Shown: positions 1,062-23,376 of the stretch, piece by piece
Layout: each line of letters opens with the position of its first letter
Numbering within the stretch: position 1 is the first letter of the stretch
NCBI GenBank assembly: GCA_016840165.1
Contig: JAEOSU010000094.1
Coordinates: 1-27,508, forward strand
Source of the DNA: Promethearchaeota archaeon
GTDB lineage: Archaea; Asgardarchaeota; Lokiarchaeia; Sigyniarchaeales; SOKP01
Direction: 5' to 3'
Length of the DNA stretch: 27,508 bases
Program-made: the position numbers and the translations under genes
The notes under the pieces: model-generated
What the model saw: the letters and a program-made list of their open reading frames with translations, nothing else
Database searches by the model: none
What the model was told of the DNA's origin: nothing

Positions 1062-1117
1062 ACTTCGTCCTCACATATTTAATAAAACAAATTGCATATA
1101 TATTTTAGTGTACCTCT

Positions 1118-1771: not shown

Positions 1772-1802
1772 TTTAAATCCTCATTCTAACCAATTTATTA
1801 AT

Positions 1803-1814
1803 AAAAAAAAAAAA
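1803..1814 (-). terminator. Putative archaeal oligo-T terminator after the phospholipase gene
   Basis: A12 run on the + strand (T12 on the coding strand), ~30 nt downstream of the stop at 1845. Confidence 0.45.
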
Positions 1815-1844
1815 TTTAAATTAATTCTTTTTTAGACTCTAATG

Positions 1845-6100: not shown

Positions 6101-9100
6101 ACCTCCATCAGATACTTTCTGAACGCCATCCACGTAGACATCATAATGATAAATGGAAAGCCCATTATACCCGCTCGAGTCACACGCAAAATCCACCCGC
6201 ATACGATACCATGTATCAGAGCTTACACTCATTACATCATAATAATTGCCTCCATAATATCGCTTGATTTTACCATCACGGATATAGAGCCGAATGACGT
6301 CAGTTCCTCCATTCTGTAAGTAAAAATTGAGCACTCCACCATTTGCTTTTGTTGAGTACCACCACCATTCAATAGAACCGTGAGCATGTCCTGCATCAAA
6401 TTGATGATAGAAATTGGAATGATCTGAATCTCCCTCCGAAACACCGAGTACTTGGGAATGTCCGTCAATTTCTTCATAAATCTTCACATAGCTTTCTACA
6501 GAAGAGGAATCAGAGGTGACGAAATCGATATCGATACTACAATTACCGATAGGAGAGTCTAAAAAGCTTTCAGAGCCAAGATAATGCCCTTCTCCTGGAA
6601 TATTTAATTGAATCACACTATAATGCTGATTCCAATCATTGTAATGTCCATTAAAAGTCGAATTTGCCTCGAAAATCGCTAACGTATTCGCTTTTTCGAT
6701 ATATACGGTCTTTACCTTCACCCGTACGTAATTAGGGAAACCAAACCGTCCTGTATCACCTTCAAAGAGTATAGTATACTCCCCACTAGTGTCTATAGTA
6801 TACTGTGCATCTTCATCAACTCCTTTGATGTCGTTAGAGCCTAAGTGACGATAGACGCTATAGAGCTGCAAGTTCATGGTAATGGTATTTCCTTGACGGG
6901 TGGTATCATCATCTATATTCACATAATAATGCTCGTCAAAATAGCATGCCTGATATGAGCCATAAATATTTGGAGCTGAAGTTCCCTGAGTAACTGGAGT
7001 GACGATATAATAATCATTCTCTCCAAAACTAAAGGCAACTACTACCTGCATTAAAGCATGCCCATCACCAATCGCAAGATTATTATATTCCCCGGTATAG
7101 GGGTGAATTTCCAACATGACATCATGGAGCGGATCCCTATCCTCTGGATCGTTTGCCTCATCTCCATCACTGTCCTTTGAGAGAGGGGAGGTACCAGAGG
7201 TGAAAATCTCATAGTAATCGCTCCATCCATCGCCATCAGTATCGTTATTAGCGGGATCTGTTACCCAGCCGACCGTATCTTCAAAGTTAGCGGGAACATA
7301 CGTATCGGCTTCAATCTTAAAGGTACTCAGATTGAATAAATTATTTACTTTTGTCCCATAAAGTTTGATTTGGAGCTGATAGGTTCCGTAAATTGTTCCA
7401 TCATTGCAATATGCTCCTAAATCAAGCGATTTCGAATAGCTAAACGCTGCGGAAGAGTTGAATGAAACTGTATCTATCATTAAACAGATATCACTTTTTG
7501 TAAGATTGAGAACATCCTTGATCAAATAAATAAATACTTGACCTGTCCCATTAGGTGTTCCCACAGAACTTATTTCTATGTCTAATTGCGCGTCCGTAAC
7601 TTCTCCCGTCTGAGAGATCTCAAGGTAATATTCATCAGGATGGTCAAGAGATGGAAACTGAATATACTTATTGTCGCCAATCTCGTAGAAGGGATCCCAA
7701 GAGAAACCAAAAGCATCATAATAATTATAGTATCCGCCATCATTTGATAAAGTCCCTAATCTGATTTTATCTATACTTGAAGAGCTAAAACTAATATTCT
7801 CCGCGATTAAAGAATCATCAACATACCAATTAAATTTCCCCGTATTACAATCAAATTTTATTTTAAAATGGAGCCACTTATTGTTTTCTGGAGTTCCTAC
7901 CCAATTATAGCCCGACACATAATAAAAATATTCATGTAATACACCCACGCTAAATTTTGAGGTTGAGCCTGATAAGAATTCGATCTTCCCCATTTTATGA
8001 TAATTTGTGGTTCGATACCAAAATTCAACCGTACCATTTGTTTGCGCATCGAATTCATTAACAGCATAGATATACCCAACTCCTGCAATATAGTTATTAT
8101 CATATAATTCTAATACTTCATTATGTCCATCTTTTTCTTCTATGACTTGAATTGTTGTACTTGAAGGCTTATTATAGCTGTCAATAAAGTCGATATCATC
8201 TTGATCCTCTCCATTTTCTCCCGTAAACGAATATGTTCCAGGATAAAGCGGATAAAGCCCAACCTCAAATGAGTCAGGGATGGTGTCTCCAAGGTTTTCT
8301 CCTTCCCAGTAATAACTATGGTTGATTATATACCAACAATAGCCGATAGCATCAAAATATACGTCAAAATTAGCGGAACTTTGTCCTGTGCTCAGCATTA
8401 ATTTGTCCAATAAAACACAATTACTTTGATAGAAATTGATATTTTCAGCCTCTAATTCACCGTTAATATACCAATCAAATTTGCCTTTGGTTCCTGCACT
8501 GCAGTTAAAGACAATCTTATGGTGATACCATCCATTTGAGCTATAGACTTTTATATCATGGTAAGAACCATCATACCATGAAAATTGCCCATTCTCTCTC
8601 ATTTTTAAAGAGATTGCCATAGTTGATCCGTCATAGAAGATTACCTCGCTGAATTTATCTTCCGCTGATTGTGCCCAATAAAATTCGATTGTTCCGTTAC
8701 TACGCTCAAATTGAGTATTATAGACCTCGACATTGCCATTGGAATTATCATCTGAAAGTTCCAAAACTTTGTTATGATAGCCAAACTCCGAAAGAATGGA
8801 TGCTTGACAATTAGAATCTACGGAAATACTGTCTATAAAATCGATATTTGTACCACTTGTCCCATCCTCTTCATTTTCAAATGAGAAGCTTCCAGAGTAA
8901 TTGCCGATTGGATTGAGAGTTACATTAAATATCTCCATATTCTCTTGAGTGCCATTTACTAGGTAAGGCGCATAATAATCTTGGATTTCAATGATATCAG
9001 TTCCATTTACCAATACTCCCATTTCAACACCATCTAAAATCCCATCATTATCTGAATCTGAATCATTAGGGTCTAAATAACGGCTAAAATCTAATTCAAA

Positions 9101-12100
9101 ATACTCCAAATAACACTTCGGATTGCCATTAAATCTGTTATCGCCTATATTATATAGTTCATCCCATGAGTAACCAATAGCATCGACGAATAGCCAGAAA
9201 TCATAAAAAGTTCCATACCCTCGGGTGCGAAAGTTGATGCTACTGATGGATGTAACATTGTCATAGAAGTAATACTTGCCATAACTCTGCCCATCGATAT
9301 ATAAGTAATAATAATCACCATCGCATTCAAAATCATAACGAATGTGATACCAACGATCTGCCTCAAAATCTGCGACGATTGACTCCGCTCCTCCATCTTC
9401 AGTGACACGAAAAGAGCCTCCTTTATGGAGTATATTAACAGCCGAGGTGCCACTTGACAGGTCTCCTTCTCGTGCTTCCATAACCATAATTTCCGAATAG
9501 CCGTCTCTTCGAACCCAAAATTCGATCGTACCATTGCTTTGAGGAGAAAAAGAATTTTCTATTCTGGCATTTGCGGTAGGGCCAGGGGCGGTATCAAATA
9601 ATTCGACTACATTTGCATGACCATCTACTGATTCTATTACTTCTACATCGCAATAATCTCCTTCCCATGAGTCCCATTCGGCAGGTAGACCCCCAACTGT
9701 ATCATCGGTAAAACTATAGGTACCACAATAAACTCCATTTTCATAAAACCGATATGTACTGACAAATTCTTCTTCATTGTCTCCAACATAATACCCAGGA
9801 TCCCAAGAATAACCCACCGAATCAACAAATACATAGTAATCGTTATAGGTTCCCCAGCCTCGCGTGTGAAAAACTATTTTATTTAAAGCAGTGACATTAT
9901 CATAGAAATAATACTTGCCATAACTCTGCCCATCGATATATAAGTAAAAATAATCACCATTACATTCAAAATTATAGCGAATGTGATACCAACGATCGGT
10001 ATCAAAATCTGCCACAATTGACTCTGCTCCTCCGTCTTCGCTTACGCGAAAAGAGCCTCCTTTATGAAATAATTCAATTCCTAAAGTATCATCTTGGCAC
10101 ATCCTCCCAACGCGGAATTCTTCTGTATAACCATCTCTCCGTACCCAGAACTCTACTGTACCATTAGTCTGAGAAGAGAAAGAATTTTCAATCAGAGCAA
10201 AATGCGTTGTATATGCATTGGAATCCTTCAACCTCACTATTTTAGCATGTCCATCTAGTGATTCTAATACGCTTACATCACAATAACTTCCTTCATATGA
10301 GGTCCAACCATTGGGTAAGCCCCCAACGGTATCATCTTCGAAACTATACGTAGCGGGATAATGTCCCTCTAAAGTGGTATTGTCAGGATATATAATACCT
10401 ATCTCATAATCCCCATAATAATCATACCCAAGAGTAATATTATTCATGATCTCAGTCACATCAACCACTTGGCTGAAATATCGAGTGTTATTCGTTGAAA
10501 AGTTTGCTAATATAATCCCATTATCCTTTTTCGTGATAATAATTTGTAAGTCTAGCACTTCTTGATCGGAAACTCCATAGGAGCCTGTTGCATTCGTTCC
10601 ATACTCACCAAAAGAGATCCCAAATGAGATCTGGGCAGCAGAGGCTTGAGTGAAATGATGAGGAAAGTGTAGGGTAGAAGATGCGGTCAGATTTACTTTC
10701 TTATCTAAATCATCAAATCCCTCATCTGCAAGTTTTATGAGGTAATTTTTAATCTCTGCTGAGTCAGATACGAAATCATGATCACTATCCGCATCTAAGG
10801 GATTAGTATAAAACCCAATACCCCACCCATAGACTTCTTCCCCATCTTTTAAGCCATCTTGGTCGCTATCAGTATTATTTGGATCAGTACCATATTGTAT
10901 TTCCCAGTAATCTGAAAGAGTATCCTCATCTCCGTCCCATTTTGTCGGGAACGGATCTATGTCATCATCGAGCTGATCATTGTCCGTATCGCTTAGCTGG
11001 GGATTGGAACCCGCTAAGAATTCCTCATAGTCGCTTAATCCATCCGAGTCAGAGTTATTATCTAATGGATCAGCAGAAACATGAAATGTAGAACTGTTCT
11101 CAAAGTATACCACGGTAATGTTCCATCCATAAAGCTCATTCCCATCGGAAAGATAATCGTTATCCGTGTCATAATCTAAATTATCGGTATCCACCGAGAG
11201 TTCGCCGAGAGTGCTGTTAATAGTATAACCATCCCATAACCCATCCCCATCCGTATCGGGATCAAGATACGATGTATTAGAAATCGTCTGTTCATAAGTA
11301 TCGGTTAATCCATCACCATCCGCATCCGAGGTTCCATCAGCTAGTTCAAGCATATCCTCAACATTGTCGCTAATTCCATTTAATGTGTTATCGATAACTG
11401 AATTAATCTTAAAGGAGGCAGTATTCTTTTTGCCTTCCGGATCTACCACGGTAACTCTTCCTTGATAAATCCCCGTTTCTGTACACGTGAAAATGACATC
11501 TGAATAATAATTCCCTCGAGAATCATACATATAAAATTTGTTATTGCCTTTTCGGATCTCCCAGATAAATTTTAATGAACCCATATCATATTGTGTATCC
11601 ATAGCCCACGCACGGAGTTTGATCTCTCCATCAGAACTGAATAATTCATATTCATCCGAAGAAACTCCATGATACATATAGTTACCAATAAATACTTGAG
11701 GTGCTAAGGAATGAACATTAATGGTAATTTTCTGAGAGCTAGATGTACCTGATGAATCGGTTACTATGAGTGTATATTCATATTTGCCATTATCGAGAAT
11801 TACTTGTGGTTTTGGCTCATGAGAAAACAGTTGATTCTTCTCATCAAACCAAGAATATTCAAGTAAAGACTCATCTCGTTCGGAATCGTATACTTCCACG
11901 TCTAAGAGAAGTGCGCTCCCCTCTGTTGCTTGAAACCCGAATGGTCCGACAATCTCAGGAGCCTTCGAGAGGATAGTAATATTTTTTACATCGGTATGGA
12001 AATTACCATACGCATCTGCTATGGTAAGGGAAATGTTGTAGACCCCAGCCATTTGCCACGCATGTTCCGCATAAGGTGCATTTACAGTATAGCCATCAGA

Positions 12101-14398
12101 AAAGTCCCATTTATAATGTAATCCTATACAATCATTATTAATTTTTGAAGTAAATTTAATTCTCTCACCTTCATAAGCAGTAGGCAAGAACGAACTAATA
12201 ACTCCAAAGGGCTCTGGGCTCGATTCATATCCAATATCATGAAGGATTCGAGGATTTAACGTCTCAAAAACTATATCTTTACGTGTATCGATTGAAAGGT
12301 TAGTTGAAGTATACCCACCATCGTCATCAAGTGCATCCCCATTAATTATGTTTTTACTTTCTATACATCCAACTATACTTACTTCCGTTAATCCCATTCT
12401 ATTCTCAAGAATATCATAAAGATCAATTAAAGGAATTATAAGATATTCTAAATTGGTATTCACAGGGAATGAATTATTTGCCAAGTATGTATTTTGGGCT
12501 AATTTCTCTGCGTATACTGATGCATAATGTTGACCATTTTGCTCAAAGAGATTTATATTATAATTCACGTTATCCACAGTAAAAGACTCGTTTTGAAGGA
12601 TAAAATTATTAGAAGTGAATATGACAGTCTTCGACTCGGAATGACCAAGAGAGATCTGTACATCGTCTTGAGAAGGATCAAAAACTTGGGCTTGCAGAGT
12701 TATCGGATGATTTACCCCAAAATTAATCCCATCATAGAACAAAAAGGAGAGATCTTGCTCCCAATAAGCATCGTTGCTCACAACAAATCCTCCGCTCGAT
12801 AAAGAATATGATTGTCTATCTAAAAATATAATATTAAATTGGATTTCATACTCTGTATTGTCTCCAACATCGGAAGTAGTGTTTACTGCCACTTTCCAAT
12901 TCTTATCTGCTACAAGAGGAAATGGAATGGTTGCTGTAGTAATGGTTAAAGATGTATTATCAGAAAATGTAAGTTCATTCCGAAACATAGTGGCATTATC
13001 ACCTAGCAATTGAACCAAAAATGAAGTATTCAAACTCGAGTCAGTGCTATTTCTTATGATACTAAAAGAGATATTCGACATATAATAGGCTTGATAAATA
13101 TTAAGCTCAGGAGCTACATTTTCAACCTGAACGTAGGTAGAGTCAACTGCAAAATTATGATCTAAATCAAGAACCGCTGCCGTTACATTTCCTTCAAAGT
13201 CATCTTCAAAGTAATGGAGATTTAAATTTCCCCCTTGAATATAACTTTGAAGAGTGTGGGGATTAAATTCTTTAGAATTAAAGTTCCAATAATAGAGTAA
13301 ATCAATAATATCATAACTATCATCAGAACCTTTAGCCTGAAATATTACTGGCTCCCCTTCTTTTATGGTATGATTCAAGGAGAAATCTTCTAGCTTAATC
13401 TCAGGTAACGTATTTATAACTTCGATGAGTCGAGAAAATACCGCAATTTCGCCATCATTATCCTTTACAGAAAGAGTAACATTAAATGTTCCGGCATGTG
13501 AGTAAGTATGAGATATCTTCTTTCCATATTCCAAGACTCCATCTCCTAAATCCCAGAGATAACGTAATGACGCTAAATCAGAAGAGGTATCATTACTTTT
13601 TTCGGCATTAAAAGTTATTACTGAGCCAACTTGAAAAGGTTTAATCCCTCCAACAGTAAAATAAGCAGTAGGTTCACGATTCTGGACTTCAACGTTCATA
13701 GATTCTTTGCGTAGTTCCCCTTGAGAACCCATTACCGATACTGACACGGGATATATCCCTTGATTTTTCCATGTGTAATAAGTTACATTATTGGTTGTAG
13801 TTTCTTGAGCATCACCAAAATGATATATATAGGTAAGATCTTCATGAGTCTCTGAAGCATTTACTTCAATTTTAATTTCTTCATCCTCAAAAACCTTAAC
13901 TAAAGGAGCTGCACTTGTTTTCAAGGGTGAAATAGAAGGAGAGCGGCTGGAAGAATGCGAATTAACCGAGAACGTAAAAAGAGGTTCGTTATTTTGAATG
14001 GTAAGGTCGAGAGATTTTGTAAGATATCTTCCATATGCATTCCATACCTGGATAATAGGGGTATATCGCCCTTGTAATGAGTAAATGTGCTCGATTTCTC
14101 CCGACAAAAAGCCATTATTATTTTCAAGTAACTCTGAAACATCTTTAATCTCGCCATCCCCAAAGATTATCAGAACTGTTTCTGGCCCTCCCGAAAGATC
14201 GACTCTAAATATAAGTGTTTTTCCTGATTCATAAGATGCATCTTCAGAATAAATTTCAAAATTATGAATCGCAAATCTTTGGATTTGGGTTACTGGTGTA
14301 CTTACAACGTAAGAAAGAGTAATTGATAATATTATAAGTACAGAATAGATTAATATTTGTCTCCGTTTTTTCGATAATTTTTTGTAATTAATTTTCAT
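3107..14398 (-). CDS. Giant cell-surface protein: N-terminal TM, PKD/Ig-like domains, DxDxDG Ca-binding repeats, five ConA/LamG-like domains, Ig-like domains, multi-TM C-terminus
   Basis: The ORF track gives 3789 aa from TTG 14476; the likelier start is ATG 14398 (MKINYKKLSKKRRQ followed by a TM helix). PKD signatures (WDLGDG, WDFSDG, HTYSHAGTFNVTL). TSP3-like DSDxDGLxD repeats at ~10760-11330. Five repeats of YxxTYSF...GHxxV..L.D...GT(V/I)EFW...WYH....F...D..G.SW. Hydrophobic blocks at ~5215-5500 and ~3110-3810. Confidence 0.9.
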   Translation of the reverse strand: MKINYKKLSKKRRQILIYSVLIILSITLSYVVSTPVTQIQRFAIHNFEIYSEDASYESGKTLIFRVDLSGGPETVLIIFGDGEIKDVSELLENNNGFLSGEIEHIYSLQGRYTPIIQVWNAYGRYLTKSLDLTIQNNEPLFTFSVNSHSSSRSPSISPLKTSAAPLVKVFEDEEIKIEVNASETHEDLTYIYHFGDAQETTTNNVTYYTWKNQGIYPVSVSVMGSQGELRKESMNVEVQNREPTAYFTVGGIKPFQVGSVITFNAEKSNDTSSDLASLRYLWDLGDGVLEYGKKISHTYSHAGTFNVTLSVKDNDGEIAVFSRLIEVINTLPEIKLEDFSLNHTIKEGEPVIFQAKGSDDSYDIIDLLYYWNFNSKEFNPHTLQSYIQGGNLNLHYFEDDFEGNVTAAVLDLDHNFAVDSTYVQVENVAPELNIYQAYYMSNISFSIIRNSTDSSLNTSFLVQLLGDNATMFRNELTFSDNTSLTITTATIPFPLVADKNWKVAVNTTSDVGDNTEYEIQFNIIFLDRQSYSLSSGGFVVSNDAYWEQDLSFLFYDGINFGVNHPITLQAQVFDPSQDDVQISLGHSESKTVIFTSNNFILQNESFTVDNVNYNINLFEQNGQHYASVYAEKLAQNTYLANNSFPVNTNLEYLIIPLIDLYDILENRMGLTEVSIVGCIESKNIINGDALDDDGGYTSTNLSIDTRKDIVFETLNPRILHDIGYESSPEPFGVISSFLPTAYEGERIKFTSKINNDCIGLHYKWDFSDGYTVNAPYAEHAWQMAGVYNISLTIADAYGNFHTDVKNITILSKAPEIVGPFGFQATEGSALLLDVEVYDSERDESLLEYSWFDEKNQLFSHEPKPQVILDNGKYEYTLIVTDSSGTSSSQKITINVHSLAPQVFIGNYMYHGVSSDEYELFSSDGEIKLRAWAMDTQYDMGSLKFIWEIRKGNNKFYMYDSRGNYYSDVIFTCTETGIYQGRVTVVDPEGKKNTASFKINSVIDNTLNGISDNVEDMLELADGTSDADGDGLTDTYEQTISNTSYLDPDTDGDGLWDGYTINSTLGELSVDTDNLDYDTDNDYLSDGNELYGWNITVVYFENSSTFHVSADPLDNNSDSDGLSDYEEFLAGSNPQLSDTDNDQLDDDIDPFPTKWDGDEDTLSDYWEIQYGTDPNNTDSDQDGLKDGEEVYGWGIGFYTNPLDADSDHDFVSDSAEIKNYLIKLADEGFDDLDKKVNLTASSTLHFPHHFTQASAAQISFGISFGEYGTNATGSYGVSDQEVLDLQIIITKKDNGIILANFSTNNTRYFSQVVDVTEIMNNITLGYDYYGDYEIGIIYPDNTTLEGHYPATYSFEDDTVGGLPNGWTSYEGSYCDVSVLESLDGHAKIVRLKDSNAYTTHFALIENSFSSQTNGTVEFWVRRDGYTEEFRVGRMCQDDTLGIELFHKGGSFRVSEDGGAESIVADFDTDRWYHIRYNFECNGDYFYLYIDGQSYGKYYFYDNVTALNKIVFHTRGWGTYNDYYVFVDSVGYSWDPGYYVGDNEEEFVSTYRFYENGVYCGTYSFTDDTVGGLPAEWDSWEGDYCDVEVIESVDGHANVVELFDTAPGPTANARIENSFSPQSNGTIEFWVRRDGYSEIMVMEAREGDLSSGTSAVNILHKGGSFRVTEDGGAESIVADFEADRWYHIRYDFECDGDYYYLYIDGQSYGKYYFYDNVTSISSINFRTRGYGTFYDFWLFVDAIGYSWDELYNIGDNRFNGNPKCYLEYFELDFSRYLDPNDSDSDNDGILDGVEMGVLVNGTDIIEIQDYYAPYLVNGTQENMEIFNVTLNPIGNYSGSFSFENEEDGTSGTNIDFIDSISVDSNCQASILSEFGYHNKVLELSDDNSNGNVEVYNTQFERSNGTIEFYWAQSAEDKFSEVIFYDGSTMAISLKMRENGQFSWYDGSYHDIKVYSSNGWYHHKIVFNCSAGTKGKFDWYINGELEAENINFYQSNCVLLDKLMLSTGQSSANFDVYFDAIGYCWYIINHSYYWEGENLGDTIPDSFEVGLYPLYPGTYSFTGENGEDQDDIDFIDSYNKPSSTTIQVIEEKDGHNEVLELYDNNYIAGVGYIYAVNEFDAQTNGTVEFWYRTTNYHKMGKIEFLSGSTSKFSVGVLHEYFYYVSGYNWVGTPENNKWLHFKIKFDCNTGKFNWYVDDSLIAENISFSSSSIDKIRLGTLSNDGGYYNYYDAFGFSWDPFYEIGDNKYIQFPSLDHPDEYYLEISQTGEVTDAQLDIEISSVGTPNGTGQVFIYLIKDVLNLTKSDICLMIDTVSFNSSAAFSYSKSLDLGAYCNDGTIYGTYQLQIKLYGTKVNNLFNLSTFKIEADTYVPANFEDTVGWVTDPANNDTDGDGWSDYYEIFTSGTSPLSKDSDGDEANDPEDRDPLHDVMLEIHPYTGEYNNLAIGDGHALMQVVVAFSFGENDYYIVTPVTQGTSAPNIYGSYQACYFDEHYYVNIDDDTTRQGNTITMNLQLYSVYRHLGSNDIKGVDEDAQYTIDTSGEYTILFEGDTGRFGFPNYVRVKVKTVYIEKANTLAIFEANSTFNGHYNDWNQHYSVIQLNIPGEGHYLGSESFLDSPIGNCSIDIDFVTSDSSSVESYVKIYEEIDGHSQVLGVSEGDSDHSNFYHQFDAGHAHGSIEWWWYSTKANGGVLNFYLQNGGTDVIRLYIRDGKIKRYYGGNYYDVMSVSSDTWYRMRVDFACDSSGYNGLSIYHYDVYVDGVQKVSDGGFVSNQGQINRIQISTGGDAFTGYFDAFGFSWEPDYTLGDNEDHYDCSGTPFEYGMNVIIIPTSLFTQTHLNGYVEHGTLNETVLYHEEEYMFEFTGPDRDGESEKANADVDFVFIRRGISPEDALAVLELVLNGVINETLDESNNTIYINATIHSYVSTKLNGTEATEMNLPYSVLGYIPWVNNYTNSAMGDEPDPEGAFDFVLWFLCLVNPILRVVLNAQMAMTGGKFFAYLQEFLATIFMNALGFLAQLLWVIARAALLVLAYVLLAIHIFMQILIYITSGIALLVLTSFMGGYTEFSWNFVEFSVYSRVFRMESEVKWYYWDFFDMKFPWVVDKVYNNGTLTFTTELDVLFGNEVFNGVNNSYFEINEPQGPPSLHCSFNHVSGATYEFWTLYDDSGTGDNPPDANYGVRLHLIAPNGTAIEPLSMNVHEDYLPDPDYSKPVNYTYVVDLSTIYELDGLWHYFFTTKDNFSDQIVFKPVGSYLLGPCISTSDLSYVLEYSTIQTSKNEWYTSAGFKNENFTFKTWYYGSEAPSNVSLCLIPANISNGFGGVNKTVGIRKFLMTPSVVYPNYSAMDPVEFNKTLNFSNLGYNDNEIGWFHHYFEVEFSDGSLSYLYGDSYDESNSSIEVDLKGPYVVKDEDKPVLLGVKCYNLLGDYWRISTDYTSFLFEATFMSPDNYDLMEGYPRIIFTDGKGRESQPFYMEDVIYEYELGVYACAATVNLADLGAGKWFWRIEAKDEYGVAAETVTSGDSYIYNLGNPIDMTTCYTLTSSLSGFLPLVFYGAAAVAAWNPDSSASTVLTVLGCASAIISSIIMIKAAVDSENPFMILGTATALLLNSFFLSFSGVFKERTIDWFNLFGDLGDESIMSFARAKFGKGLASPLGSTIKTVLRYTAIMSLLASALSINPQHDMLSFIYDISGVGTLLNMIFTPIQIVVNLLSTIFVRTAFDAVNLIDEPSCKTKVKFVSRNVSGTGLLIGLFAVLMFIEFLEYMG
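9255..10066. repeat. Intragenic tandem duplication of a LamG-like domain (near-identical DNA, offset 639 nt)
   Basis: tcatagaa(g/a)taatacttgccataactctgcccatcgatatataagtaa...gaaaagagcctcctttatg occurs at ~9261-9427 and ~9900-10066. The offset of 639 nt equals 213 codons. Confidence 0.9.
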
Positions 14399-14580
14399 TT
14401 TATTTTTCTCTTTTTTTATAGATTTTTTTAGTAAATTATTTTCGATATTTGCAAGGAAAAATAGAGGACAGAACAATAATGAGACTCTAAAGTGAAATAA
14501 CGCTATCCCAATTACTAGCTGGATTCCTCTGATTTTTCCCTATTCAATATCTTTGCAGTTACAATATATTGTGAATCTCA

Positions 14581-15519: not shown

Positions 15520-16275
15520 CTAACAGAATATTTGTTTAATTTGGCCTTGCAAAAAATGGAGAAAATTTTCATTAAACATTCCCTCCTTAATTTCTTTTCT
15601 TAGGAGTTCTGAAGTGTACTTATTTCTTAAACCTTGATTGTTCTTAATTTCTGTGAAACACCCTCTAATTGAGTCCAGTTTTTGAGAATCCAAATTTAAA
15701 TCAAATTCTTGGTTCAGCTTATCATCGGAATATACAAGAAAACTTGAAATATTAATCCCAGCACGAGTTAGCTTCTGAAGCAAATTTAAATATGGTAAAT
15801 GAATTGGTTCTAAGGGAATTCCTAGCTTATAACAGGTGGATCTGATTCTTTCTTCGTTCCATTGATCTAATTCCTCTAAGTCAGAGCACCTCTCCTTTCT
15901 AAACCTTTCAATTGTTAAAGGTGGCTTTTTAAACTTATTTAAGATCGAATTTGTAAGGTCTAGCGTTGATTTATAGCTGATCCAATCTTTATTGCTAACA
16001 TCGCCCTCAATTTCTTGATGTCTATATATTTGGGTGTAAAAGTCGTCAAAAGCAAAATCTTCTATTATTCCATATATATAGTCTACTTCTTCGTGAGTTA
16101 AATCCAATTCATAACGATTATTATTTAGAAAAATTTCATTGTTCCATGCTTCTCTAAATTTCGATATAATGCTATCAGCGATATCATCATCCCACGGCTC
16201 CTCAGTATCCGAGGCAAATCCATGACCTTGATCTATCCAATCAAGCTCTTCCCTATTTAATACATATTTAACCAT
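15520..16275 (-). CDS. Hypothetical protein (acidic N-terminus)
   Basis: 251-aa ATG-initiated ORF, co-oriented 50 nt downstream of the nuclease. No recognisable motif. Confidence 0.7.
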   Translation of the reverse strand: MVKYVLNREELDWIDQGHGFASDTEEPWDDDIADSIISKFREAWNNEIFLNNNRYELDLTHEEVDYIYGIIEDFAFDDFYTQIYRHQEIEGDVSNKDWISYKSTLDLTNSILNKFKKPPLTIERFRKERCSDLEELDQWNEERIRSTCYKLGIPLEPIHLPYLNLLQKLTRAGINISSFLVYSDDKLNQEFDLNLDSQKLDSIRGCFTEIKNNQGLRNKYTSELLRKEIKEGMFNENFLHFLQGQIKQIFC

Positions 16276-16325: not shown

Positions 16326-17225
16326 TCATAAATTATAAAAATCAAATATACTTCTATTCTTTTTTTTTGAATCTGCCTTAAAAATTACTTTTAAATGATT
16401 ACAATATTCACAAAACATGCAAATTTTTTCTGAACTGGGAAAATCTATAATAGAAGGCAAATCTTCAATATTTTTACAATTTATTGCTTCAATAATTTTA
16501 GATTTTATCTTGCTTAATTCAGAGTCCTTATATTTCCTTAGTCTTTTAATTTTTTGAAAACCTCTCTGAGGAGAACCGGGTTTCGTATTCCATAATTCTA
16601 AATTTATGTCTTTCGCCTGTTTTTCATTAAAAATTTCTTTATATAATCTTAATTGCCTATTATGTTTAGTAGGACTAGGTTTTCCAGTTTTTAGTTCAAT
16701 AAAGTAAAAATTATAATCTTTTTGATTAAAACATACCAAATCAATTTTTCCGGTCAATAAAACTCCTGGAATAATTTGATATGTAACATTGAATTCATCA
16801 TCAATTACAGAGTTTTCTAAGAAATTATTTCTTACATATATTAGGGATTTAGCGTGCTCAACTAAAATTGGAAGTTGCATATTTATATTATCAATCAATT
16901 CAGCATATTCAGATTTCTCGAGAATGTTTGATTTTAAATAGATTTTCAATAAATATTTCCAATAATCCAAAACGAATCCAAATGCCAATCTTATTGATTC
17001 TTCTAATGATTTATTTAACCTATAGTAGTAAAATTCAATATGCGAGAATATTCTTTTAAAAGTAATTTGAAGGATAGTATGCAGGATCTTACCAATTCTC
17101 ATATAGACGTTTGGATTTTCTTCTTCAGGTATGAATTCTTTCTTTAATCTTGAAATGATATAAATAATTAATTTCCTATCACATGTTGCTTCTGAAATAT
17201 TTGATATGCCTAAAGTAAAATGCAT
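16326..17225 (-). CDS. Cas4/AddB-like PD-(D/E)XK nuclease with predicted Fe-S cluster
   Basis: N-terminal Cys (EATCDRK), motif I MRIGKILH, DDEF, LTGKIDLV, FIELKTGK (ExK), RQLRLY (QxxxY) and C-terminal CMFCEYC. The start overlaps the upstream stop (TAATG at 17223-17227). Confidence 0.9.
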   Translation of the reverse strand: MHFTLGISNISEATCDRKLIIYIISRLKKEFIPEEENPNVYMRIGKILHTILQITFKRIFSHIEFYYYRLNKSLEESIRLAFGFVLDYWKYLLKIYLKSNILEKSEYAELIDNINMQLPILVEHAKSLIYVRNNFLENSVIDDEFNVTYQIIPGVLLTGKIDLVCFNQKDYNFYFIELKTGKPSPTKHNRQLRLYKEIFNEKQAKDINLELWNTKPGSPQRGFQKIKRLRKYKDSELSKIKSKIIEAINCKNIEDLPSIIDFPSSEKICMFCEYCNHLKVIFKADSKKKNRSIFDFYNL

Positions 17226-19102
17226 TAGAATGGATTTTCCTCATCATATTTATAAGGTATCTTATTAAAAAGCCCTTTTTTCTTATATTGTAATAAAAAT
17301 GGTAAATTTACTTTAGAAAAACTCTCTGTTTGATAGAATGTCAAGTAAAAAATAATTTGCAAAATATATTTACTATTTATCTTATTCAATTCGGAACTCA
17401 TTGTCACCAATAGAGGATTAGGAAGACCTTGCTCAGGAATATCCGGATATCCTGTATTTATCAATAGAAAACGATTTAAATCATTGTCAAATAACTGGAT
17501 ATAAGAACCATTCTTAGGGATTTCAAGTTTATTATATTGAGAATTATAAAAAATCCGCGCATTTGGTCTTCTTATTAAAACACAATAAGATTTTCCTTTT
17601 ATTTTTTCAATAAAATCTTCAGAATAGCTACCTTGTTCAAAAATATATAATTCATTATTATAATCAAATCTATATTTTATTTCTAAAATATTAAGGATAT
17701 CGTTGAGGATATCATCCCTTTCTTGATTTTCTGACTTTTTAAAATAGATTTCTTTAAATCTCTTCAAATTATGTTTTATAGTATTAAAAATAATACCAGA
17801 AACCTTAAATATATCAAAATCGGGTTCAAAAATTACACTAAATGAGATTATTCTCTTAAAAATTGGACGTTCATTGAAATACCATATCAAAGTTTTATTA
17901 ATCCTAAAATTGAATGCCAACCAAATTAATAATAGATTCTCATCAAAATCATCAATTATTTCCAATGTAGAAATATTTATAGCCTTAGAAATATCTGCCT
18001 TTCTCTTTATAGTAGCATAAACATATTCAGAACCCTTGTATTTATCATTAATTAATACTAGATAAGGATAATCATTCGAAAAATTGAATTCGTCTATATT
18101 ATTAAGATAATATTTACTTTTTATATTGAAGATACCTGAATCCTCGAGTTTTTTAAGGTAATCCTCCAAAATTTGTTTAGATACTTCAGATAACTTATAT
18201 GTATCAATAATAATTTCTATTTCGATTATTGGTATTAAATTTAAATTATTTCTAAAAAAATCTAATAAATTCATTTTGAATGACTTATTTTTAATCAAAT
18301 CTAAATTCTGATTTATAAAGTTAATATATATTTCATTAGGATAATTTAATGAAGTATTTTTATATGTGGAATTAATTTCAGGCTCATAAATAAAATTGAA
18401 TTCTTCAAGTCTATTGTAAATATATGAACAATATTCGTCAAATCTTTTAAGAAATTTTTCAGAGTCTAAATATACTAAAGAATTCCACATAGGATCATTT
18501 TCTATAAGTCTCCTGTCCTCTAAACTTAGTGGTAAATCTAATAAATTGCCATAAATCTCATAATTGGGCAAAAAACTTACTATAAATTTGTTGTTATTGA
18601 TAAAAACTTCATGATTGACTGATTTATAGATATTAATCTCATTAAATTTTTTTGCGTCTTTAATTGAGATTGTATTAATTAATTCTTTTCTGTAAGATAA
18701 TTTACCCTTAGCAGATTTTCCTAAAAAGGTTCTAATATCTATAGGTTTTTCAAATCCATATTCAATGTATAGATGATCAATCAATGTATAAATAAAAATT
18801 GAGATAGCTTTAGAATCATTGAAATTTTTAAATTTTATTTCTTCAATGACTTCTCCAATATAATTTTTGATAACTATAATCTCCTTTAAAATTGTATCTT
18901 CTTTACTGATAATATAATATTGGCTATTACTCTTGAATAAGCCAAATGGGAAATTACTTTGGTATTCTCCATTTTTGATATAATATTGTAAGGTGGAGAT
19001 TGGGATATCATCTCGATTAAAATCAACTCTAAAAATGCTTAATTTGTTTACATCGATATTTCCACTCCAGCCAGGAATAATTAAATTGGTAATTTGAACC
19101 AT
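17225..19102 (-). CDS. Divergent, catalytically inactive Argonaute-like protein lacking PAZ (N-L1-L2-MID-PIWI)
   Basis: N-terminal ITNL..LSIFRVDF. L1 INIYKSVNHEVFINNNKFIVSFLPNYEIYGNLLDL. MID YATIK...SKAINISTL. PIWI tail LIRRPNARIF, IPKNGSYIQL, FLLINTG, QGLPNPLLV, QIIFYLTF, VNLPFLLQY. The GxD and RDG catalytic motifs are replaced (IISFS, FEQG). Confidence 0.75.
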   Translation of the reverse strand: MVQITNLIIPGWSGNIDVNKLSIFRVDFNRDDIPISTLQYYIKNGEYQSNFPFGLFKSNSQYYIISKEDTILKEIIVIKNYIGEVIEEIKFKNFNDSKAISIFIYTLIDHLYIEYGFEKPIDIRTFLGKSAKGKLSYRKELINTISIKDAKKFNEINIYKSVNHEVFINNNKFIVSFLPNYEIYGNLLDLPLSLEDRRLIENDPMWNSLVYLDSEKFLKRFDEYCSYIYNRLEEFNFIYEPEINSTYKNTSLNYPNEIYINFINQNLDLIKNKSFKMNLLDFFRNNLNLIPIIEIEIIIDTYKLSEVSKQILEDYLKKLEDSGIFNIKSKYYLNNIDEFNFSNDYPYLVLINDKYKGSEYVYATIKRKADISKAINISTLEIIDDFDENLLLIWLAFNFRINKTLIWYFNERPIFKRIISFSVIFEPDFDIFKVSGIIFNTIKHNLKRFKEIYFKKSENQERDDILNDILNILEIKYRFDYNNELYIFEQGSYSEDFIEKIKGKSYCVLIRRPNARIFYNSQYNKLEIPKNGSYIQLFDNDLNRFLLINTGYPDIPEQGLPNPLLVTMSSELNKINSKYILQIIFYLTFYQTESFSKVNLPFLLQYKKKGLFNKIPYKYDEENPF

Positions 19103-19110
19103 CTCGATTT

Positions 19111-21342
19111 TTACAAATAAAATGGTATTTTAAAACTAAATGAATTTAAATTGTATTGAATCCCTTTTTGAAGTGTCGATCGAGCAAAATGCAATGGAAA
19201 TGGTAATTTTGTTTCATTTTTTACTAATGCAGGATTGTATCTAGAAAGTTTAAAGATTCTTGATAAAATATTTCTTAAATTATCCGATTTAGTGCTTAAC
19301 ACTCGGACTTTTATACAAGAGGGAGTCCCTATTTGTGTCTTGGAGGTAATAATATGGCAACTTTTTCCATTAATTATTACACCATTTCCTTGCTTAGGAG
19401 GATAAATCATCCATTTCTTCTTATCGTCTTGTTCAAATAACCTTACTAAAGATGCGTATTTTATTCCAACAATGTCAAGATTTTTCGAATCTGTTATATT
19501 CTCAATAGATTTCACTATATTAGGAATTACTGGACCAAATATCAGTAGAAATATACTAGTATATTTCTTAAATTCCTCACTTAAAATTTCAAGAAGTTTT
19601 TTATCAAAAATTTCTGGATTTTCATTAAGGTATTTACCCTCTATAAAATCACCTTGATTAGTAAAAACTAAAATTGAAGCAATGACATGATCCTTAAAAA
19701 ATTTAATATTCAGACCAATAATGATTTCATTACTTCTAAAAACCTCTTCTAAAACCCAAGTCTTCCCCTCAGATTTTAAATAGATCTGAAGATAAATCAG
19801 AGATCTTAAACTCCCATAACCTATGTCATTTAAGGTATTAATGTTTATTGTTTGATTTGGCTTATCATTTTCAATCAATAAGGATTTAACATTATTGTGC
19901 AACTCTATATTTTCAATATCATTAATCAAAATATAAAAATGATACACTTTGGGTTGTTCAGCATTTAGTATTTTTTGAACATCATCTAATTTCTTTATTT
20001 TTAATGGTGTCAATTGAATGTTTTCGATTTTAGAGAATGATTTATACGTCTCGATGTTATTATATAAGGATTCTGAACTTTTTAATAGATTTTCAATTAT
20101 ATCTAAACCTTTACCTGATTTGAAATATAATAAATGAAAATGGAGAGTATCTTTCCCGTTACAAGATTGTTTATAGAAACCTATATCATTATATTCTATT
20201 GAGGGAAATTCGGTAGGATATTCATTTTTTAGCAAATACGTAGGATTGGCAAAATCAACCTTTACTATATCAGATGACCTAGTATCTAATAATTCTTCAG
20301 GAATGATTGGAAAATTTAAATCTCTAAGATCTGTTATGAGATTCATGTATTCTTCTTTAATCCTTTTGAACCTTTCAAACGGTTTTGGTTGGATTTTCCT
20401 CATGAGACTTTTTGCATCTGAACCAGCATCACTAGTTATAGGTACAATCCTAAGTATTTCTAATGGATAAGAATAAACCTTTTCGGGATTACTCCAAAAG
20501 ATCCTATGAATTAATGGTTCTTTATCTATTATTTTCTCACTTAATAATTTCGTAGGACAGATATTCTCATCTTTGTAAAATTCCAATAAATTTATTGTAG
20601 CTTTGCTAGGTTTTTCATTTACAATCTTCAAATCTTTAATATTGCTAAAATAAGATGGATAATTTAGATCACAAGTGCCAAATGGATTTAGGTAATCTGG
20701 GCAATTAACTACACAACATATTTTTTCAGTATTCCTATTGTTATCATATTTTATTTTGTTGTCTTCCCATAAATCTCTCAGAGTATTTTCTGAAAAAAAT
20801 TTTGACTTTGGCTCAATAATTATCCCAATATTTCCTCCAGACTTTAAAAGTATAGGTTTATACCGAAAACCCATATGTATATGTATTATCCCAAATTTAT
20901 CATCAATTTCTGGAGATGTTGCTTGATAAACATTTTTCCCATATTCTTCATAAACTATATAATTATCTTCTCTATTTCTTAGTACAACAGCTATTCTTTC
21001 TGCGATATACCTCAAAAAAAGTGTTTCTATTTCTGTATCTTTTAGAGCATTGTTTAGACTAATCTCTCTTTTTTGGATGTGATTAGAACTAATAATTATT
21101 TTATTTTTAATTATGAATTTCATTAACTTAATTTTATCTAAAATGTCTTCATCTGAGATAATTGAGTTACCATATTGAAAAATTGTTATTCTTTTATGAT
21201 CTTTTCGTAATTTTTTTACTAAATAGCCAATTAATCTATATCGATTATTCTCAATATCTCCTAAATTGTAGATATATAATTTTATCGATGAATTTTTTAT
21301 CTTTTTTAATTTGACTATATTAGTATAAAGAATCTTATTTAT
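19111..21342 (-). CDS. ago: Long prokaryotic Argonaute, catalytically inactive (N-L1-PAZ-L2-MID-PIWI)
   Basis: Numbering is from the 670-aa ORF (ATG 21123). PAZ NLLEFYK and YSYPLEIL; L2 PKPFERFKRI; MID pocket H409-K413-Q424-K450 (LQIYLKSEGKTWVL); PIWI IIIGLN (D->N472), LIFG (RDG lost), PPKQG, GTPSCI, IFKLSRYN, TKLPFPLHFAR; C-terminal PFYL. The frame stays open upstream to 21351 and encodes an Ago-type N-terminus, so the start is placed at ATA 21342 (ATT 21333 is an alternative). Confidence 0.88.
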   Translation of the reverse strand: MNKILYTNIVKLKKIKNSSIKLYIYNLGDIENNRYRLIGYLVKKLRKDHKRITIFQYGNSIISDEDILDKIKLMKFIIKNKIIISSNHIQKREISLNNALKDTEIETLFLRYIAERIAVVLRNREDNYIVYEEYGKNVYQATSPEIDDKFGIIHIHMGFRYKPILLKSGGNIGIIIEPKSKFFSENTLRDLWEDNKIKYDNNRNTEKICCVVNCPDYLNPFGTCDLNYPSYFSNIKDLKIVNEKPSKATINLLEFYKDENICPTKLLSEKIIDKEPLIHRIFWSNPEKVYSYPLEILRIVPITSDAGSDAKSLMRKIQPKPFERFKRIKEEYMNLITDLRDLNFPIIPEELLDTRSSDIVKVDFANPTYLLKNEYPTEFPSIEYNDIGFYKQSCNGKDTLHFHLLYFKSGKGLDIIENLLKSSESLYNNIETYKSFSKIENIQLTPLKIKKLDDVQKILNAEQPKVYHFYILINDIENIELHNNVKSLLIENDKPNQTININTLNDIGYGSLRSLIYLQIYLKSEGKTWVLEEVFRSNEIIIGLNIKFFKDHVIASILVFTNQGDFIEGKYLNENPEIFDKKLLEILSEEFKKYTSIFLLIFGPVIPNIVKSIENITDSKNLDIVGIKYASLVRLFEQDDKKKWMIYPPKQGNGVIINGKSCHIITSKTQIGTPSCIKVRVLSTKSDNLRNILSRIFKLSRYNPALVKNETKLPFPLHFARSTLQKGIQYNLNSFSFKIPFYL

Positions 21343-22037
21343 CCCTCCATTTTATCTTTAAATTCAAGGAAATCAATTTTCAAACTAATGTTCAAATTGT
21401 TATCCTTGATGAAATCTACAATTACATTATAGATCAAATAAATCCCATAGTTTAAAGGTATATAAGCGCATTTTACTTTTTTAAAAGACTTGTTAAGATT
21501 TGAGATAAACGAAATAATTGGTTCTGATTCTTTAATTATTGATTTCATTTGACATTTTATCAATAATAAGTCATTAGAAATAGATAAATGAGTTTGGATC
21601 AGAGAACTCTCAAATAATGCCATTAATATTTTTTTATTATTATCTACTGAACTTATCTCAAATACTCCGAGAGGATTTAAACGTTGTAAAAGATAATTAC
21701 TTAAATCTTCATAATTTAAACGTAATTTCTCATCAACAAGGCTTATAAATTGACCGGAAATTAAGTTTTGAAATGATGAAAATTCATTCTTTTTAGGATA
21801 GTAATCATAATCTATTTTAGGTAATAAAACAAACTTTTGATTAGTAGGTGTGTAATTAATTTTTTTATTGGTTGTCAATTCTTTTAGTAAGTTTTCGATT
21901 GAATCTTTTAGCTCTTTTAAATTTTGAACAATCACTTCTTTTTCAATTAAATATCTAATGATATCCTCTATGGAGCCCTTTTGATACTCTTCTATATATT
22001 CTATTATATAATTTTTAAAATCTTCCATTCCAATCAA
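21339..22037 (-). CDS. Argonaute-operon protein: N-terminal winged-helix-like domain, C-terminal alpha/beta (possibly YbjN-like) domain
   Basis: FKNYIIEYIEEYQKGSIEDIIRYL...IENLLKELTTNKKINYTPTNQKFVL resembles a wHTH. The C-terminal pattern HLSISNDLLLIKC...ISFISNLN...VKCAY is weakly YbjN/chaperone-like. Start is TTG 22037 or ATG 22028. The stop overlaps the proposed ago start. Confidence 0.6.
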   Translation of the reverse strand: MIGMEDFKNYIIEYIEEYQKGSIEDIIRYLIEKEVIVQNLKELKDSIENLLKELTTNKKINYTPTNQKFVLLPKIDYDYYPKKNEFSSFQNLISGQFISLVDEKLRLNYEDLSNYLLQRLNPLGVFEISSVDNNKKILMALFESSLIQTHLSISNDLLLIKCQMKSIIKESEPIISFISNLNKSFKKVKCAYIPLNYGIYLIYNVIVDFIKDNNLNISLKIDFLEFKDKMEG

Positions 22038-22074: not shown

Positions 22075-23376
22075 TTAGATTACATATTCCTCTGGCAATT
22101 GACTAAAAAATCTATTTTCTGTTGTATTTTTTATAATCAATGGATTAAGTTCACCAGATATTATAGAATTATAATTTTCAATAAACCATTTGTTTATTTG
22201 ATCTATAAAACCTTGAGTATCTGTTTCTTCAATAAGAAATCCATTAAAAGTGGTTCCATTTTTATCAATAAAAGTTAAGGATGGACTTGATTTATTATTT
22301 TTAACTTCATAAACGCCAATTATTTGATTTGTTTTTATCCTTTTCCGTTTTTCTTCTCTAATTTGGTGAAATTCAAACCAACTTTCTATTGGATAATAGA
22401 TTTTTGGATTAAAGATTACAATTTTCCTACTTTCTGAAACCCATTTACAATCTTTATTATAATAGTACAAAATTGGTTGAATTTTACCTTTTAAAACATT
22501 AATGGCATAAATATTAAATTGAATAGGTACTTCATTTAAAGATATATTATTTTTCCTTGATTCCAGGTAAACTAAAAGAGACCCAGCACCAATATTTTTT
22601 ATTATTTGATTATTCCAATAATAATAATTATGCTCATGCCCACTGAAAATCAAGTGGAGATCATTTTCTTCTAAAAAGTTAATACTTATCTTGTTATCTT
22701 CAAGGTTTTTTAGTGAGTGATGACATATTAGAAATTTATTCATATTACTAAATTGGATTTTTCCAAAATTATCTTCTAATTCCGTTAAAATGTTTGATAA
22801 ATCCTTCATTGATAACACTCCAATATCTAAATATTTTTGATTCAAATACTTATTTCTATCTTCAACATTTAAATTCCTAATCTCGTCATTAATAAGTCTT
22901 TTTTCAATATATTTACATGAATTTACTGCAATGAAAATAGAATTATAATCCTTTAAATATTTGAAACTAACTTGATTTTTCCTAAAATCTTTTGATAAAT
23001 TCACATTGAATTCTTTTTTTTTCTTTTTTAAGAAATTTGTAAACTCTTTAAATTGAGATTTTGACTCAATTGAATTCAAATCTAAGTCATGATTTCCATT
23101 GGCTATACATATCGGTATACTCCTTTTAATGAATATTTGCAAAAATTCCATAAGATATTTATTTTGAAGTTGATCCATATCACCTTTCGAAGAAATATCT
23201 CCTGAGATAATTAAAATTTTAATGGAATAATCTTGCATTATCTTTTCTATTGTAGTTATTAAGAGAGTAAAAAAATCTTCAAAGGATTTTCCAAAACCTG
23301 AATCTCGAGCAATGGATTTTTCTCCAAAATGTAAATCAGAAATATGAATAATATTAAAAGCTTTATCATTTAACAT
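22075..23376 (-). CDS. Calcineurin-like metallophosphoesterase with C-terminal extension
   Basis: All five motifs are present: HISDLH, ISGD, GNHD, CHH and SGHEH. Confidence 0.92.
   Translation of the reverse strand: MLNDKAFNIIHISDLHFGEKSIARDSGFGKSFEDFFTLLITTIEKIMQDYSIKILIISGDISSKGDMDQLQNKYLMEFLQIFIKRSIPICIANGNHDLDLNSIESKSQFKEFTNFLKKKKKEFNVNLSKDFRKNQVSFKYLKDYNSIFIAVNSCKYIEKRLINDEIRNLNVEDRNKYLNQKYLDIGVLSMKDLSNILTELEDNFGKIQFSNMNKFLICHHSLKNLEDNKISINFLEENDLHLIFSGHEHNYYYWNNQIIKNIGAGSLLVYLESRKNNISLNEVPIQFNIYAINVLKGKIQPILYYYNKDCKWVSESRKIVIFNPKIYYPIESWFEFHQIREEKRKRIKTNQIIGVYEVKNNKSSPSLTFIDKNGTTFNGFLIEETDTQGFIDQINKWFIENYNSIISGELNPLIIKNTTENRFFSQLPEEYVI

Follow-up and report, generated by a model that had tools for sequence, protein, structure and literature searches.

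Introduction

Prokaryotic Argonautes (pAgos) without a PAZ domain have been described repeatedly. Ryazansky et al. (2018; PMC6299218) listed 31 PAZ-less long pAgos, and Manakova et al. (2024; PMC10954474) described single-chain PAZ-less long-B pAgos together with the fAfAgo heterodimer. For Asgard archaea, Leão et al. (PMC11291487) drew attention to Argonautes without PAZ, and Bastiaanssen et al. (PMC11217426) reported mixed long and short clades of Asgard Argonautes. Two described systems join a pAgo to a nuclease. In APACE, the Cas4-family protein ACE1 binds the MID-PIWI lobe of the pAgo and trims guides (Bobadilla Ugarte et al., 2025; PMC12094033). In BPAN, Ago dimers recruit the nuclease (PMC13535254). 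This study concerns a gene cassette on contig JAEOSU010000094.1 of assembly GCA_016840165.1, a 3.6-Mb Asgard (Promethearchaeota) metagenome-assembled genome (MAG) of marine sediment origin. Positions 1 to 27,508 of this contig (27,508 nucleotides) were analysed and are called the window. The cassette encodes two Argonautes in tandem, Ago1 and Ago2, followed by a nuclease. An initial annotation, made from the sequence alone, had proposed that Ago2 lost its PAZ domain and carries an altered MID pocket. We consider it rather probable that Ago2 is a guide-end-binding, PAZ-less, catalytically dead Argonaute that docks a Cas4-family nuclease in a five-gene, two-Argonaute Asgard defence cassette.

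Results

Ago2 as a divergent Argonaute

The cassette genes are packed tightly, and all lie on the minus strand of the window. The two Argonautes and the nuclease are placed as follows.

19111-21333, minus strand: Ago1, a catalytically dead long Argonaute, putatively PAZ-bearing (PADLOC pAgo and AaAgo matches)
17225-19102, minus strand: Ago2, a 625-amino-acid (aa), catalytically dead Argonaute, predicted to be PAZ-less (open reading frame, family profile, AlphaFold2, Foldseek, VIA)
16326-17225, minus strand: putative Cas4-family (ACE-like) PD-(D/E)XK Fe-S nuclease (Pfam PDDEXK_1; invariant residues)

The Ago2 open reading frame (ORF) is intact. As a single sequence (P0001), Ago2 had no match in Pfam, PADLOC or PDB sequences, and BLASTP found no significant similarity between Ago2 and Ago1. 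Homology to Argonautes emerged with profiles only. An exhaustive HMMER search recovered 39 Ago2-family clusters at 50% identity, nearly all of 585-705 aa, and 32 of these 39 members form the family profile and alignment (A2). The A2 profile matched the PIWI domain of KmAgo with an E value of 1.8e-6. Pfam Piwi was reached by 3/32 members, and the PADLOC pAgo model best matched by Ago1 was also reached by 10 members of the Ago2 family. In-clade members matched the PADLOC PprPIWI model through the PIWI C-terminus only; P0046, which lies outside the core clade, aligned to it over residues 206-687. Compared by hhalign, the Ago2 and Ago1 families aligned over the end of MID and PIWI (probability 98%, E value 3e-14, 20% identity).

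The AlphaFold2 model of Ago2, built with A2, had a predicted local distance difference test score (pLDDT) of 89.2 and a predicted template modelling score of 0.89. Foldseek matched it at E values of ~1e-23 to hAGO2, AaAgo, PIWI-clade proteins, CbAgo and KmAgo. VIA-align superposed it on full-length Argonautes with Z scores of 22-25 and 476-543 of 625 residues aligned; the matches to full-length Argonautes cover model residues 3-617/625. These alignments extend to model residues 613-625, and on the partner side they begin at residue 1 of CbAgo, KmAgo, MjAgo and PliAgo. Asgard HrAgo1 gave a Z score of 23.2 with a root mean square deviation of 3.8 over 489 aligned residues, and AfAgo, which comprises part of L2 and MID-PIWI, gave a Z score of 22.4 over 335 residues (model residues 247-625). 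In the ESM Atlas, template modelling (TM) scores of 0.70-0.72 were obtained to eukaryotic PIWI/AGO clusters. A PIWI domain preceded by MID was found in Ago2 by profile, Pfam, Foldseek and VIA, and VIA also found N, L1 and L2 as they occur in long Argonautes. Ago2 is, on its predicted structure, a real but very divergent Argonaute. Because the VIA superpositions run on Argonautes from end to end, its N-terminal half is, as modelled, a genuine Argonaute N-L1-L2. This agrees with the relationship to Ago N/L1 that had been proposed, the model superposing on N domains from residues 2-5 onward.

Loss of the PAZ domain

Ago2 was divided into the following regions.

18818-19102, minus strand: N domain, about residues 1-95, boundary approximate (secondary structure; VIA alignments)
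18548-18817, minus strand: L1, about residues 96-185, with the invariant motifs RTFLGKSAKGKLS and LPNYEIYGN (family alignment, AlphaFold2 model)
18464-18547, minus strand: stub in place of PAZ, about residues 186-213, formed by a loop and a pair of short helices, with a conserved DLPL (AlphaFold2 model, family alignment)
18233-18463, minus strand: L2, about residues 214-290 (AlphaFold2 model; AfAgo alignment from residue 247)
17873-18232, minus strand: MID, about residues 291-410, with pocket Y362-K366-(S372)K373-R400(K403) (family and profile alignments)
17228-17872, minus strand: PIWI, about residues 411-625, without DEDX and with the acidic tail KY(N/D)EExPF (KmAgo alignment)

Between L190, the last residue of the motif YGNLLDL in Ago2, and L212, the first of LDSEKFLKRF, there are 21 aa. 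The equivalent motifs of Ago1 (P0002 numbering), SENTLRDL at 111-118 and PKPFERFKRI at 246-255, are 127 aa apart, so the short L1-L2 spacing noted in the initial annotation is real. The Ago2 model leads from the last strand of L1 (172-185) through a loop and two short helices (194-201 and 204-210) to the long L2 helix (214-233); the predicted structure holds no PAZ domain, as the proposed deletion would have it. Measured between residues 185 and 217, the stub has 28-37 aa in 32/32 aligned Ago2 members, some of which are only ~20% identical. PAZ loss is therefore, on this alignment, ancestral to the whole Ago2 clade and not an assembly artefact.

Ago2 is thus modelled as a single-chain N-L1-L2-MID-PIWI Argonaute without PAZ. 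It lacks the PAZ domain that stands between L1 and L2 in canonical long pAgos and eukaryotic Argonautes. It also departs from short pAgos, which consist of MID-PIWI only and have N-L1-L2 (APAZ) on the effector: N-L1-L2 lies in the Ago2 chain itself, and the 299-aa Cas4-like nuclease has no room for an APAZ region. In structural terms, Ago2 may fairly be described as standing midway between long pAgos and the combination of APAZ with a short pAgo; as a novelty this does not hold, since single-chain PAZ-less long pAgos have been published (PMC6299218, PMC10954474).

The nuclease and its predicted complex with Ago2

The Ago1 and Ago2 genes are separated by 8 bases. The stop codon of Ago2 and the start codon of the nuclease share 1 nucleotide (nt) in the sequence TAATG, not in ATGA, and the nuclease gene is translationally coupled. 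Nine residues are invariant in the nuclease family, namely C15, C269, C272, C275, D162, E177, K179, Q191 and Y195. They make up a 1+3 cysteine pattern, a D-ExK motif and a QxxxY motif. Judged from these intact motifs, the nuclease is a Cas4/ACE-type Fe-S PD-(D/E)XK enzyme, and it carries the features of the Cas4-family partner in APACE (1+3 Cys, D-(D/E)xK). In Pfam, PDDEXK_1 was matched above threshold (2.5e-9) and Cas_Cas4 weakly (E value 0.026; 15.0 bits, under the 22.7-bit cut-off).

The complex of Ago2 and the nuclease was predicted without nucleic acid. Its interaction score (ipSAE) was 0.83 (runs of 0.83, 0.84 and 0.81), against 0.01 for the best of three controls. Of 80 solved complexes 58 attained this mark, as did 2 of 110 mismatched pairs; these counts apply only roughly here, since the prediction used our own alignments. 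The runs agreed in at least 92% of their contacts, with a partner pLDDT of at least 76. In the model, the nuclease spans the Ago2 cleft with its helical N-terminal half. On the Ago2 side it touches the N domain (27-31, 75-84), residue 127, the stub (188, 190-191), MID (302, 334-335, 355-363), PIWI (428-431, 454-459) and the tail (614-620). The MID contacts include the loop just before Y362. It seems unlikely that the score was drawn from memorised solved structures, because sequence similarity to the solved BPAN and SPARDA assemblies is negligible. The suggestion that Ago2 serves as an adaptor for the nuclease gains support from this prediction and from strict synteny.

A docked nuclease with intact catalytic motifs could also be the effector. 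In a system resembling BPAN or SPARDA, Ago2 would be a guide-loaded sensor, and target binding would trigger the bound nuclease into indiscriminate DNA degradation (abortive infection); the Cas4-like enzyme would not process guides. A nuclease encoded downstream is the usual partner of a dead pAgo, and long-B pAgos adjoin effectors with N-terminal helical and PD-(D/E)XK domains (PMC10954474, PMC10620215, PMC13535254). An interface through the helical half of the nuclease fits this explanation as well. The cassette, however, has a separate, swappable, effector-like gene (gene 1, below), while the Cas4-like gene is constant. In addition, both the Fe-S signature (1+3 Cys) and the length of ~280-340 aa match ACE/Cas4, and ACE1 is an enzyme that processes single-stranded DNA (PMC12094033). 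We regard the sensor-effector explanation as rather unlikely, though it is the strongest competitor to guide-end binding with a docked, guide-related nuclease.

The MID pocket and the catalytic site

In the profile-profile alignment (hhalign), Y362, K366, K373 and R400 of Ago2 stand opposite H, K, Q and K of Ago1. Relative to the 5'-phosphate motif Y/H/R-K-Q-K, the first two positions of Ago2 are canonical, the third is K for Q and the fourth is R for K. The altered Y-K-K-R pocket described initially is therefore present, with its Q-to-K and K-to-R changes against Ago1. No fewer than 30 of the 32 members keep the pocket (Y/H362-K366-K373-R400) at ~20-40% overall identity, and no other positions in MID are as well conserved family-wide as these four. 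The catalytic residues D527, D596 and D713 of KmAgo align with the non-acidic Ago2 residues S/F, Q and K, and these columns vary within the 32-member alignment. Ago2 lacks the DEDX tetrad of slicers; with it gone, the protein is, by its residues, a dead slicer. Conservation of the pocket residues throughout the family, while the catalytic columns vary, points to a functional 5'-end pocket that would be more basic than the canonical one. The conserved K/R variant may indicate a different guide-end chemistry, which is relevant to tool development. As had been read from the sequence, the C-terminus is acidic in Ago2 (YDEENPF) and reads PFYL in Ago1. The acidic tail KY(N/D)EExPF is conserved in the closer Ago2 subfamily only and has a low pLDDT.

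These data bear on the possibility that Ago2 is a guide-less scaffold that tethers the nuclease, and perhaps Ago1, with a vestigial or blocked MID pocket. Ago2 has no PAZ to hold a guide 3' end, its acidic tail is unlike the canonical one and poorly modelled, and the predicted nuclease contact at 355-363 lies right beside Y362. A vestigial pocket would nevertheless be expected to drift as the catalytic columns do, and nearly all members (at least 30 of 32) retain this one; for that reason the guide-less state suggested by the initial annotation is unlikely. PAZ-less Argonautes, such as fAfAgo and short pAgo-APAZ complexes, do bind guides (PMC10954474). A scaffold that has lost its guide is accordingly improbable in our estimate.

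Phylogeny of Ago1 and Ago2

A MID-PIWI tree was built solely from 44 Asgard and metagenomic Argonautes. In this tree, the Ago2 family forms one clade with a Shimodaira-Hasegawa-like approximate likelihood ratio test (SH-aLRT) support of 95, and Ago1 groups with other long and short Asgard Argonautes (support 96). The approximately unbiased (AU) test rejected an Ago1+Ago2 clade (p = 0.002), the group having been named after the tree was seen and long branches being present. In the available sample, the proposal that Ago1 and Ago2 are in-paralogues is thus rejected. A group of G161, G176 and L045 was recovered in both the Ago1 and the Ago2 subtree, and co-inheritance of the pair fits this shared grouping.

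Since Ago2 stands in tandem with another Argonaute and is invisible to Pfam and PADLOC on its own, it might be taken for a decaying Ago1 duplicate with a recent PAZ deletion and no function of its own. Several observations speak against this: ORFs of about 600-670 aa are intact in 39 clusters at 50% identity, the stub is of similar length family-wide, many positions are invariant, and the structure model is confident. Moreover, Ago1 and Ago2 form no clade, and their subtrees agree on the group just named. The intact ORFs, the constant stub and the AU test refute decay in practice, and we give it almost no credence.

The sister lineage of the Ago2 clade, P0046 and G082, is PAZ-less and keeps the GIDV and RDG motifs; its Argonaute gene is followed by a Cas4-like nuclease gene, and there is no Ago1. 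In G082 (L024:8036-11126), a 711-aa PAZ-less Argonaute has an H-K-K pocket as well as both motifs, with the nuclease gene directly downstream; an Ago1-like gene was not detected nearby. By its motifs, this Argonaute is possibly active. Judged from the sister lineage without Ago1, the PAZ-less Argonaute seems to have been paired with a Cas4-like nuclease before the tandem arrangement arose, and G082 may represent the ancestral single-Argonaute form of the module.

Conservation of the cassette

Strong Ago2 matches were found in 7 of 400 Asgard genomes, and strong Ago1 matches in exactly those 7. The order Ago1, Ago2, nuclease with overlapping ends was kept in 7/7 positive genomes, and distant metagenomic Ago2 members (26-30% identical) have the same gene order. 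Elsewhere among the 400 genomes, G158 had a weaker full-length Ago1-like match and no Ago2. Its gene (L032:1501-3564) encodes a 688-aa Ago1-family protein (E value 2e-233 to the Ago1 profile) and has neither Ago2 nor the nuclease downstream. Ago1 can occur alone, because the next ORF of G158 (373 codons) lies on the opposite strand. A scan of public genomes with a narrow Ago2 alignment returned only the same-genus MAG, and public records label Ago2-clade proteins "hypothetical protein". As far as sampled, the Ago2 clade is restricted to Asgard archaea and marine-sediment metagenomes.

The remaining cassette genes, the gene downstream of the nuclease and the counterparts of gene 1 in two other cassettes are as follows.

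22075-23376, minus strand: cassette gene 1, metallophosphoesterase (Pfam), swapped for a Cap4-like endonuclease in other cassettes
21339-22037, minus strand: cassette gene 2, a 232-aa protein, family unknown (a gene of equal size at the equal position in all cassettes)
15520-16275, minus strand: 251-aa protein downstream of the nuclease, not conserved elsewhere
L019:8860-9954 and L020:13392-14459: Cap4-like copies of gene 1

Gene 1 encodes a metallophosphoesterase here and in close relatives, and a Cap4-like double-stranded DNA endonuclease (PF14130) in the cassettes of G161 and G055. From this exchange, it looks like an exchangeable effector slot. Gene 2 (~232-239 aa) is present upstream in all cassettes; across distant cassettes the comparison by hhalign gave an E value of 2.4e-4 and a probability of 44%, which is only suggestive of homology. 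The 251-aa ORF probably lies outside the system, because no homologue was present in any of the related cassettes examined.

Ago1

Ago1 matched the PADLOC pAgo model at 2e-28. Its profile matched A. aeolicus Ago (AaAgo) at an E value of 5.6e-24, aligned from the C-terminal PAZ strand (YxYP motif) onward. The Ago1 structure model was poor (pLDDT 56, with residues 126-359 below 50) and PAZ was not visible in it, so that it is the AaAgo profile match that suggests a PAZ domain in Ago1. In the PAZ region (about 20557-20718, minus strand), four cysteines, C212, C217, C227 and C265 in extended numbering (CP..C...PF..C ... CP), were invariant in 9/9 Ago1-family sequences. This invariance suggests a PAZ with a Zn-binding elaboration.

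The annotated ATG of Ago1 is at 21123, and the frame is open to 21351, 76 codons upstream. The extension (21124-21351) aligns with the N-termini of homologues (M..TNI...IFQ.G) and is free of ATG, GTG and TTG. Downstream of a GGAGG, at a distance of 9 nt, there is an ATT (21333-21331), and its product, (M)LYTNIV, matches homologue starts; the probable start of Ago1 is thus ATT at 21333. In the same-genus MAG, the extension is likewise open and without a canonical start. Among metagenomic loci, one cassette (L002:4054-6255) has its Ago1 homologue split into ORFs of 508 and ~206-224 aa; a frameshift, an error in sequencing or a naturally split gene may account for this. A similar split (192 + 558) was seen at L043.

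Other genes in the window

Positions 75-14476 (minus strand) hold an unrelated neighbourhood. It contains a leucine-rich repeat protein and a surface protein of 3789 aa (PKD/LamG/TSP3), the latter coupled to a protein resembling Zn-dependent phospholipase C. Its guanine-cytosine content of 35-40% is clearly higher than the 22-29% of the Ago island.

Discussion

The reading that we favour joins four elements: a PAZ-less Argonaute, a dead catalytic site, a conserved 5'-end pocket and a docked Cas4-family nuclease. Ago2 would still bind the 5' end of a small nucleic acid and is predicted to form a heterodimer with the nuclease, in which it would act as the Argonaute of a pAgo-Cas4 module resembling APACE. 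The nuclease may make or trim guides, whose 3' ends would be without PAZ protection, or may be controlled by Ago2. The module may feed or cooperate with Ago1, and the swappable gene 1 (metallophosphoesterase or Cap4-like DNase) would give the killing or interference activity.

Five points weigh against this reading. The nuclease profile matched solved ACE and Cas4 chains only marginally (E values of 0.07-0.24). The predicted interface is no better conserved than the protein as a whole (0.411 against an average of 0.407) and so lends the complex no independent support. The nuclease is placed against the loop beside the 5'-end pocket, which, if the model is right, could mean occlusion and not cooperation. 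The prediction paired the nuclease with Ago2 only, and Ago1 could be an equal or better partner. Finally, the APACE pAgo is a catalytically active long-A Argonaute with PAZ that stands alone, whereas Ago2 has neither DEDX nor PAZ.

A bolder proposal concerns the pair. Ago1 and Ago2 might be obligate partners in a hetero-Argonaute machine, which would be the first defence system with two Argonautes. The Ago2-Cas4 module would capture and process 5'-ended invader fragments and pass them to the PAZ-bearing Ago1, or pair with it on the same target, and joint recognition would switch on the swappable effector. We put this forward tentatively, as a possibility that falls well short of likely. If true, guide acquisition would be split from target sensing in a way that recalls the multi-Argonaute pathways of eukaryotes, to which these archaea are related. 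Should the two Argonautes cooperate, the logic of prokaryotic Argonaute immunity would be extended, and a multi-Argonaute arrangement otherwise associated with eukaryotes would be found in Asgard archaea.

Among known systems, the PAZ-less long-B pAgos share with Ago2 the N-L1-L2-MID-PIWI layout, a PAZ that is absent or reduced to a helix, an inactive PIWI, the Y-K start of the MID motif and a gene for a helical domain plus PD-(D/E)XK directly downstream. The long-B traits of an inactive PIWI, a YK MID motif and a downstream effector gene were all found in Ago2. In contrast to those pAgos, Ago2 belongs to a separate, very divergent clade (in a tree of Asgard and metagenomic Argonautes) unseen by Pfam and PADLOC, has K for Q and R for K in the pocket, and is accompanied by a Cas4/ACE-type Fe-S nuclease downstream and always by a second Argonaute upstream.

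APACE1 likewise encodes a pAgo together with a Cas4-family nuclease of ~280-310 aa. Like the nuclease of the cassette, that enzyme carries a single N-terminal cysteine, three more at the C-terminal end and a D-(D/E)xK motif. A heterodimer through the MID-PIWI lobe is experimental for MaAgo-MaACE1 and predicted for Ago2 and its nuclease. Unlike APACE, the cassette obligatorily has a second dead Argonaute and further genes.

The short pAgo systems (SPARTA, SPARSA, SPARDA) and the single-chain SIR2-APAZ-pAgo fusions resemble Ago2 in their PAZ-less shape, dead PIWI and effector on the N-lobe/PAZ side. In those systems, the effector carries N-L1-L2 (APAZ), whereas in Ago2 this part is joined to MID-PIWI and a chain of its own forms the nuclease. 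The cassette also differs in having no NADase and two Argonautes. BPAN (a long-B pAgo with bAgaN) has, like the cassette, a dead pAgo and a PD-(D/E)XK nuclease engaged through the nuclease N-terminal domain (PMC10620215, PMC13535254). Its active assembly contains Ago-Ago dimers, but these are homodimers of one pAgo species with PAZ*, while the cassette has two different Argonautes; nor is its nuclease of the Cas4-type Fe-S kind.

Our literature searches found no description of a cassette encoding two different Argonautes, of this divergent clade or of a Y-K-K-R pocket. The Ago2 clade escapes the standard models of Pfam and PADLOC, and its partner is always another dead Argonaute to which it is unrelated. 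Earlier work has described both single-chain PAZ-less pAgos and the pairing of pAgos with Cas4 (APACE); new are the divergent Ago2 clade, the K/R variant of its pocket and a cassette in which two Argonautes are obligatory.

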